Shown here one piece after another: positions 34,422-35,853 of a stretch of DNA of 64,000 bases (its first letter is position 1; the number at the start of each line of letters is the position of its first letter). The notes below the pieces were generated by a model, which saw only the letters and a program-made list of their open reading frames with translations, was not told where the DNA came from and did no database searches. The DNA is from Escherichia coli (GTDB lineage: Bacteria > Pseudomonadota > Gammaproteobacteria > Enterobacterales > Enterobacteriaceae), in NCBI RefSeq assembly GCF_002854065.1, contig NZ_CP024147.1. One strand, 5' to 3'. The translations under genes were made by a program, and so were the position numbers.

Positions 34422-34995
34422 GGCTTTATCGCCTGAGGTTATCGTTTGCCCAGGAAACCGCTTGTGTCCGGTTTTTTACGGCTATCTTCTTGAAAAGATT
34501 ATAAAGATGCGTTTTAACCGTATTTTCGCTGATGAACAACGAACGAGCGATCTCGTTATTAGACGCGCCGATACGCAGCTTATTCAGGATCTCTTTTTCC
34601 CGATGAGTAAGGAGGGCTGATTCCGTGCTGTTATAACGATAGTTACCAGAATGTGTAATCAGGTAACTGGCAAGCTTTTGCGTAAAGTAGCATTCGCCGC
34701 GCAGGACGCCTTGCAACCCATTGACAACACGTTCTTGATCCTCCATGGCATAAAAAACGCCGTTGATATGAGGCCAGTTTTCAATGTCGCGGTACGGGTA
34801 ATCTTCAGGCGTATTTAGCAACAATATTTTGATATTGTTGTTTTTCCTGCTCAAAGTATCCTGCCAATAATGGATAAGCTTTTTATCCGCTTCCATCATA
34901 TCCAGAAGAATAATAGAGCCTGAAGAGATATCGTCCAGAGGGTGATGCTGCCAACTTACTGATTTAGTGTATGATGGTGTTTTTGAGGTGCTCCA

Positions 34996-35271
34996 GTGGC
35001 TTCTGTTTCTATCAGCTGTCCCTCCTGTTCAGCTACTGACGGGGTGGTGCGTAACGGCAAAAGCACTGCCGGACATCAGCGCTATCTCTGCTCTCACTGC
35101 CGTAAAACATGGCAACTGCAGTTCACTTACACCGCTTCTCAACCCGGTACGCACCAGAAAATCATTGATATGGCCATGAATGGCGTTGGATGCCGGGCAA
35201 CCGCCCGCATTATGGGCGTTGGCCTCAACACGATTTTCCGCCATTTAAAAAACTCAGGCCGCAGTCGGTAA
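34996..35271 (+). CDS. insA: IS1 InsA
   Basis: Identical to the other InsA copies. Confidence 0.95.
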
Positions 35272-35693
35272 CCTCGCGCATACAGCCGGGCAGTGACGTC
35301 ATCGTCTGCGCGGAAATGGACGAACAGTGGGGATACGTCGGGGCTAAATCGCGCCAGCGCTGGCTGTTTTACGCGTATGACAGGCTCCGGAAGACGGTTG
35401 TTGCGCACGTATTCGGTGAACGCACTATGGCGACGCTGGGGCGTCTTATGAGCCTGCTGTCACCCTTTGACGTGGTGATATGGATGACGGATGGCTGGCC
35501 GCTGTATGAATCCCGCCTGAAGGGAAAGCTGCACGTAATCAGCAAGCGATATACGCAGCGAATTGAGCGGCATAACCTGAATCTGAGGCAGCACCTGGCA
35601 CGGCTGGGACGGAAGTCGCTGTCGTTCTCAAAATCGGTGGAGCTGCATGACAAAGTCATCGGGCATTATCTGAACATAAAACACTATCAATAA
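35190..35693 (+). CDS. insB: IS1 InsB reading frame
   Basis: Identical to InsB of copies 1 and 2. Confidence 0.9.
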
Positions 35694-35853
35694 GTTGGAG
35701 TCATTACCCGTCCAGAGAACGTTGAATATTATGTAATTTTCCTGTAATTGCCAGCGATTGTTTAAGGTGCTGCAAGAGAGCTGTCGCCTGCAAAGAAGGT
35801 TTAGTGATCAACAATAATGTATGACCATGAATACTATGGACTTCATTAAACAT

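Follow-up and report, generated by a model that had tools for sequence, protein, structure and literature searches.

Interruption of csgD, the curli and biofilm regulator gene, by an IS1 element in an Escherichia coli genome

Introduction

Can the csgD gene at this locus still give rise to a functional CsgD, the master regulator of curli and biofilm formation, and if not, how was the gene broken and what would be expected to follow for the strain that carries it? We addressed these questions in a 64,000-nucleotide stretch of Escherichia coli DNA, which is called the window throughout and to which all coordinates refer. A preliminary description, made from the letters of the window alone, had proposed that an IS1 insertion inactivates csgD.

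Loss of curli through IS insertions and deletions is a feature of Shigella and EIEC, and inactivation of the curli locus in these groups was reportedly described by Sakellaris and co-workers in 2000. Strains of Shigella, EIEC and EHEC often do not express curli (PMC6173799). A csgB::IS1 insertion giving non-curliated E. coli O78:K80 is cited from La Ragione 1999 in PMC6029578, and in chemostat populations an IS1 insertion arose in the csgD transcript (PMC3446313). Natural csg knockouts have been read as the result of selection against curli or of relaxed selection (PMC6173799, PMC6029578). The window resembles the losses in Shigella, EIEC and O78:K80 in that its csg locus, too, is broken by an IS element.

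The csgD gene is split by an IS1 element

The csgD gene lies on the minus strand, with its ATG at 35853 and its stop codon at 34426..34428, and is interrupted by an apparently intact IS1 (Table 1). The element has the terminal repeats of IS1, with GGTGATGCTGCCAACTTACTGAT at its start and GGTAATGACTCCAACTTATTGAT, as the reverse complement, at its finish. These inverted repeats (~23 bp) are imperfect, with 18 of the first 23 positions pairing. An A6C motif for -1 frameshifting (AAAAAAC, 35247..35253) would yield the InsAB' transposase, and the NCBIfam model NF033558 matches InsA as well as InsB'. The features by which the IS1 family is recognised (768-bp length with terminal repeats, insA-insB' frameshift and 9-bp duplication) are thus all found in this element. 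Its IRL is turned toward csgEFG and the csgD 3' fragment, whereas its IRR is turned toward the promoter and the csgD 5' fragment.

The duplicated target, CGTCCAGAG, runs from codon 46 position 2 to codon 49 position 1 of csgD, and this 9-mer is found only twice in the 64-kb window when both strands are counted. The preliminary description had placed the element and its perfect duplication right to the base.

Table 1. Features of the csg locus and of the other IS1-associated loci in the window
Feature	Coordinates	Strand	Remarks
IS1 in pgaC	17160..17927	-	9-bp duplication GCATAGGGG; within first ~15 codons of pgaC
pgaC	15885..~17210		
pgaB	17980..19998		
pgaA	20007..22429		
IS1 without target-site duplication	24473..25240		flanks atgatctta a / cgccgcgag
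csgG	32731..33564	-	intact; full-length NCBIfam equivalog above cut-off
csgF	33591..34007	-	intact; full-length NCBIfam equivalog above cut-off
csgE	34032..34421	-	intact; full-length NCBIfam equivalog above cut-off
csgD 3' fragment	34426..34940	-	nt 137-651: rest of receiver domain with Asp59, plus LuxR/GerE HTH
Target-site duplication, left copy	34932..34940	.	CGTCCAGAG; csgD nt 137-145
IS1 (IS1B type)	34941..35708	+	768 bp; apparently intact; IRL 34941..34963, IRR 35686..35708
insA	34996..35271	+	91 aa, antisense to csgD; NCBIfam IS1 transposase and Zn-binding domain matches
insB' frame	35190..35693	+	NCBIfam NF033558, 143.8 bits (cut-off 100)
csgD 5' fragment	35704..35853	-	48 native codons, then Gly and TAA (35706..35704) from the IS1 IRR end
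Target-site duplication, right copy	35709..35717	.	CGTCCAGAG; perfect 9-bp repeat
csgD-csgB intergenic regulatory region	35854..36605	.	752 bp, 34.6% GC, uninterrupted
csgB	36606..37061	+	intact; full-length NCBIfam match above cut-off
csgA	37102..37560	+	intact, 152 aa; full-length NCBIfam match above cut-off
csgC	37619..37951	+	intact; full-length NCBIfam match above cut-off
IS1 in yceI	50888..51655		duplication CGGCGTGGT
yceI fragments	50559..50801 and 51651..51911		

When IS1 and one copy of the repeat are removed, the two remaining pieces, 35853..35709 (145 nt) and 34931..34426 (506 nt), join to give 651 nt, or 216 codons plus a stop, the same total that had been noted before. The restored gene is 100% identical over these 651 nt to the intact, annotated csgD of many E. 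coli, and the 216-aa protein scores 356.8 bits against the CsgD equivalog NCBIfam NF007505 (cut-off 250). A functional CsgD is recognised by an uninterrupted frame with a receiver-like domain and a LuxR HTH; csgD as found has no such frame. It is a pseudogene, and no functional member of the CsgD family is encoded here.

Translation from the native start can yield only a 49-aa product without the HTH and without most of the receiver domain, which bears out the proposal that IS1 inactivates the gene. The break had been put after about codon 46; this is close, the exact figure being 48 native codons. It had also been described as separating the receiver-like N-terminus from the HTH, and this does not hold. 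In the Pfam domain map the VpsT-like receiver domain extends over residues 18-132 and the GerE/LuxR HTH over 155-210. With IS1 entering after residue 48, it is the receiver domain that is cut, at a point before the conserved Asp59. The 3' fragment is left without a promoter, and its only start codon is the internal Met60/61, which has no start context.

Among 5,426 complete E. coli genomes in RefSeq, the junction was found in that of CUWW06 alone (NZ_CP182139.1; wastewater, Thailand). The PGAP/RefSeq annotation of this sister genome treats csgD as a pair of partial pseudogene CDS, one on either side of an IS1B transposase. The partial CDS correspond to window positions 35710..35853 for the 5' fragment and 34426..34938 for the 3' fragment, and the sequence identical to the window IS1 is named 'IS1-like element IS1B family transposase, programmed frameshift'. 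We consider it very probable that csgD in the window is a natural null allele, formed by simple transposition of IS1 into a 9-bp target in the gene.

The remaining six csg genes are intact

Apart from the insertion, the locus has the canonical arrangement of all seven genes in two divergent operons: csgG-F-E-D', IS1, 'D, the 752-bp intergenic region and csgB-A-C. The csgE, csgF and csgG genes lie downstream of the broken csgD in the same operon and are intact in the CUWW06 annotation too. The csgB, csgA and csgC genes, which form the CsgD-dependent operon, are likewise annotated as intact there. All six genes are full length in the window and exceed their NCBIfam cut-offs, as expected from the earlier reading of csgBAC and csgEFG as intact. 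The csgD-csgB intergenic region is 100% identical to that of CUWW06 and 98-99% identical to those of other E. coli. Beyond IS1, csgD and its six companion genes have acquired no further changes.

The 152-aa CsgA allele is common to the window and CUWW06 (WP_000771428.1). It presumably differs from the 151-aa CsgA of K-12 by one extra glycine in the N-terminal GGGGGNHGGGG run.

The same 9-bp target has been used in other strains

The identical 49-aa truncated product is encoded in several NCBI assemblies. Two of these assemblies, CP022672 and CP019689, belong to Shigella sonnei 866 and 75/02, whose genomes are closed (PMC6128377, PMC5447701). These two strains share with the window the 9-bp target, the orientation of IS1, both junctions and the 49-aa product, and their csgE and csgG are largely intact. 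They differ from it by seven substitutions in csgD, one of them 13 bp from the junction, and by eight in IS1, and their flanks are ~98% identical to those of the window. Because both the csgD haplotype and the IS1 variant differ, the S. sonnei insertion appears to be independent of that in the window. The S. sonnei loci have also decayed further, with an IS beside csgA, csgC uncalled, csgF or csgG calls shortened in some genomes, and deletions. The same csgD allele appears fixed in many S. sonnei genomes. The csgD lesion of S. sonnei has been described as an IS600 ~0.18 kb from the start (PMC12511311), whereas in 866 and 75/02 the element at that csgD site is 768 bp long, is called DDE_Tnp_IS1 and lies at 0.145 kb. 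In 75/02 a second IS1 is present in the csgD-csgB intergenic region.

Two further E. coli strains have insertions at or next to this position. In AVS0935 an IS1 variant of 93.2% identity lies in the opposite orientation in exactly the same 9 bp, CGTCCAGAG, with the same duplication. In VE-T9 a variant of 96.6% identity lies 4 bp away, and an adjoining deletion takes the 5' part of csgD, csgBAC and ymdA. The simplest reading of these comparisons is that at least three independent insertions have occurred in the identical 9-bp target. Recombination combined with IS1 gene conversion could in principle mimic the pattern seen between S. sonnei and the window. As the target CGTCCAGAG appears to have been used independently, shared IS junctions at this site would be unsafe as markers of common descent.

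The csgD::IS1 allele is as such already known, since RefSeq lists that of CUWW06 as a pseudogene and S. sonnei has an insertion at the same site. The only nuance that the comparisons add is that csgD nt 137-149 behaves as what may be called a local IS1 hot spot. The target 9-mer is GC-rich (6/9), with C and G at its ends, and the flanking DNA is 20-36% GC; a GC-rich 9-mer in AT-rich DNA fits the target preference of IS1. Choice of the site might be explained on this basis. Since several apparently independent insertions have occurred here in E. coli and Shigella, the position would reflect an IS1 hot spot and nothing specific to the strain. Part of the 'convergent loss of curli' in Shigella-like lineages may accordingly be due to such a hot spot as well as to selection. 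An IHF consensus was considered as the cause of a hot spot and rejected: one perfect WATCARNNNNTTR lies ~100 bp away, against 1.1 near-matches expected in shuffled sequences, and the motif is not enriched.

A stronger version of this reading, in which nt 137-149 form a powerful hot spot determined by sequence or structure, draws on the use of the identical 9 bp at least three times, in both orientations and by IS1 variants 93-99% identical to one another, with a fourth insertion 4 bp away. We think this stronger version unlikely. If it were true, loss of curli and biofilm would be a high-rate event in IS1-rich E. coli and Shigella, and possibly a reversible one, since excision restores the wild-type gene.

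IS1 in and around csgD across E. coli

To survey insertions at this locus, the 5,426 complete E. coli genomes were searched with a 400-nt query, made up of 200 nt of csgD and 200 nt of an IS1 end, and with a mirror-image query for the opposite orientation. IS1 in the same orientation and within ~700 bp of that part of csgD was found in 45 genomes, at ~20 spacings, and the mirror-image query found 25 genomes, at ~17 spacings. With one genome present in both lists, ~69 of the 5,426 (1.3%) have IS1 in or adjoining csgD. These positions were derived from match spans, and many of them lie in the 5' UTR or the intergenic region. No csgD match was obtained in 66 of the 5,426 genomes.

Independent insertions within the gene were confirmed in a Swiss strain named 042 and its relatives, and in TW10573, 184/2aE and 17MR471. 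The natural alleles in these strains (042 with its dog and cat relatives) and in AVS0935 and VE-T9 are like that in the window in having IS1 inside the CDS and csgD split into pseudogenes by PGAP. They differ in the position of IS1, except in AVS0935 (same target) and VE-T9 (4 bp off), and some have adjacent IS1-mediated deletions.

In many complete E. coli genomes csgD is intact and has an IS1 upstream. Spacings of ~-93, -398 and -517 from the ATG, again taken from match spans, recur in the lists for both orientations. These recurrent upstream spacings may be further IS1 hot spots, at which csgD expression could be raised or lowered. Judged from such matches, use of the csgD region by IS1 is clustered in general.

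Expected effects on curli, matrix and csgEFG

The csgBAC promoter requires CsgD. Without CsgD this promoter would not be activated and curli subunits would not be made, and from established curli biology the strain is expected to be curli-negative. CsgD-dependent activation of dgcC/adrA would be lost as well, and with it cellulose production. The predicted colony type is smooth and white, not rdar.

The csgDEFG promoter is driven mainly by sigma-S, OmpR, MlrA and IHF, not by CsgD. Transcripts from it would be translated only to two codons into IS1 and would then continue for ~770 nt untranslated, a situation in which Rho-dependent polarity should strongly lower csgEFG expression. Strong polarity in either orientation is a classical property of IS1. 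The preliminary description had expected both csgBAC and csgEFG to be silent for want of CsgD. On established knowledge this stands for csgBAC; for csgEFG, given the known control of its promoter, polarity of IS1 would explain any loss of expression better than the absence of CsgD.

A contrary possibility is that an outward promoter at IRL transcribes the csgD 3' fragment and csgEFG, so that CsgEFG is made, or that a CsgD of residues Met60-216, which keeps the HTH, is active without the receiver domain. IRL does bear an outward TTGGCA, which resembles a -35 element, 8 bp from its tip and facing csgD'-csgEFG, and an open reading frame from ATG-ATG (Met60/61) to the native stop is present at 34426..34899. 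Hybrid promoters, outward promoters and a -35 element supplied by IS1 ends have been reported (PMC4287979, citing Prentki 1986 and Barker 2004). Downstream of the IRL motif, however, the hexamers that could serve as a -10 at a spacing of 16-18 bp (GATATC, ATATCT and TATCTC) have only one to three of the six TATAAT positions, and a promoter consensus scan gave 4 sites against 5.1 expected from shuffles, none of which uses the IS1 -35. Neither inspection for a -10 nor the scan against shuffles therefore supports a strong outward promoter at the IRL junction. Met60 has no Shine-Dalgarno sequence at a workable distance (the preceding sequence reads ...ttcttctggatATGATG), and the Met60-216 fragment contains a partial receiver domain (60-132 of 18-132), for which misfolding is likelier than activation. 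Curli would in any case need csgBAC, hence CsgD, even if CsgEFG were made. We regard an active IRL promoter or an active fragment as very improbable, and on these sequence features a functional truncated CsgD or IS1-driven expression of csgEFG is unlikely.

A look-up of the 157-aa Met60-216 open reading frame returned hundreds of contigs, but the examples were without IS1, so that the look-up did not discriminate for the allele. These examples came from metagenome assemblies and had an N-terminal region with indels or Ns. For the 59-aa GTG-extended N-terminal open reading frame, the look-up gave nothing on record.

The reading that we prefer is that of a csgD null allele with polar effects. 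It would predict an IS1-rich E. coli lineage without curli and without CsgD-dependent matrix, and means little beyond the description of the strain.

Inheritance and stability of the allele

CUWW06 is 99.98% identical to the window, with 100% identity at the junction and throughout the csg locus. CUWW06 has a 5.8-kb IS1-adjacent deletion in pga, the window has an IS1 in yceI that CUWW06 lacks, and 12 substitutions separate the two; the 10 with listed positions all lie outside csg and the other two within 1..16099. Since the junction is common to the window strain and CUWW06, the allele was inherited and is older than the split of the two strains. Across the N-terminal-side junction a Logan contig, too, matches the window at 100% identity. 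The 35-nt junction had no match in the GTDB species-representative genomes or in the JGI metagenome contigs, which marks the allele as rare in both. A second intact csgD copy elsewhere had been named beforehand as the finding that would speak against inactivation. In the sister genome CUWW06, where this was searched, csgD is present at one place only.

Two CUWW06 plasmid records, of 51 kb and 6.5 kb, were examined. Neither is an invasion plasmid of the kind found in Shigella and EIEC, and to judge from these two records the host may well be an IS1-rich E. coli of wastewater, environmental or commensal origin more than a Shigella/EIEC pathovar.

The insertion might act as a reversible switch, precise excision restoring csgD and curli being phase-variable in the manner of IS256 in staphylococcal ica. 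Removal of IS1 and one repeat copy does give a gene 100% identical to functional alleles, the same 9-bp target has been used at least three times, and csgD and csgBAC/EFG have undergone no secondary decay although the allele is common to two diverged strains. This absence of decay, however, is equally explained by a recent insertion. The window genome, CUWW06 and the Logan contig all contain the insertion and give no sign of excision, and precise excision of IS1 is rare and not driven by transposase. In S. sonnei the same allele is apparently fixed across many genomes and is accompanied by extra csg decay (csgC loss, csgF variants, deletions). A switch of this kind is highly improbable, and we retain the view of csgD::IS1 as a null allele.

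That the insertion is an artefact of assembly or annotation, for instance an IS1 repeat collapsed in the wrong place, can be dismissed with near certainty: IS1 is multicopy (4 in the window, at least 40 places in CUWW06) and misassembly at repeats is a classic problem, but a perfect 9-bp duplication lies at both junctions and its removal restores the frame exactly, and the junctions are identical in the independent complete genome of CUWW06, the N-terminal-side one also in the independent Logan assembly.

Other IS1 copies and biofilm loci in the window

A 65-nt pattern for the IS1 end matched the window four times, against 0 matches expected from shuffles. Three of the four copies, including that in csgD, are 100% identical, and the fourth differs by 1 nt. 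Identity among the copies indicates a recent IS1 expansion. Two of the four are in biofilm loci, pgaC and csgD, 17 kb apart. The same IS1 in pgaC is present in CUWW06, where it is accompanied by the adjoining deletion of ~5.8 kb, which removes pgaB completely and the greater part of both pgaC and pgaA. With both csgD and pgaC disrupted, two biofilm matrix systems appear to have been lost from the lineage. The pgaA gene of the window has a frameshift near codon 9 and reads MYSSSRKRSRKPNGL*, which we take to depart from the N-terminus of K-12 PgaA.

The copy without a target-site duplication abuts a gene for outer-membrane lipoprotein sorting (LolA-like) that has no N-terminus, and the same structure is present in CUWW06. 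This copy probably marks an IS1-mediated deletion or rearrangement. The yceI::IS1 insertion is absent from CUWW06 and is therefore the youngest of the four insertions in the window. The copy in yceI is one base off the other three, with a G444T change that replaces Arg by Ser in InsB'.
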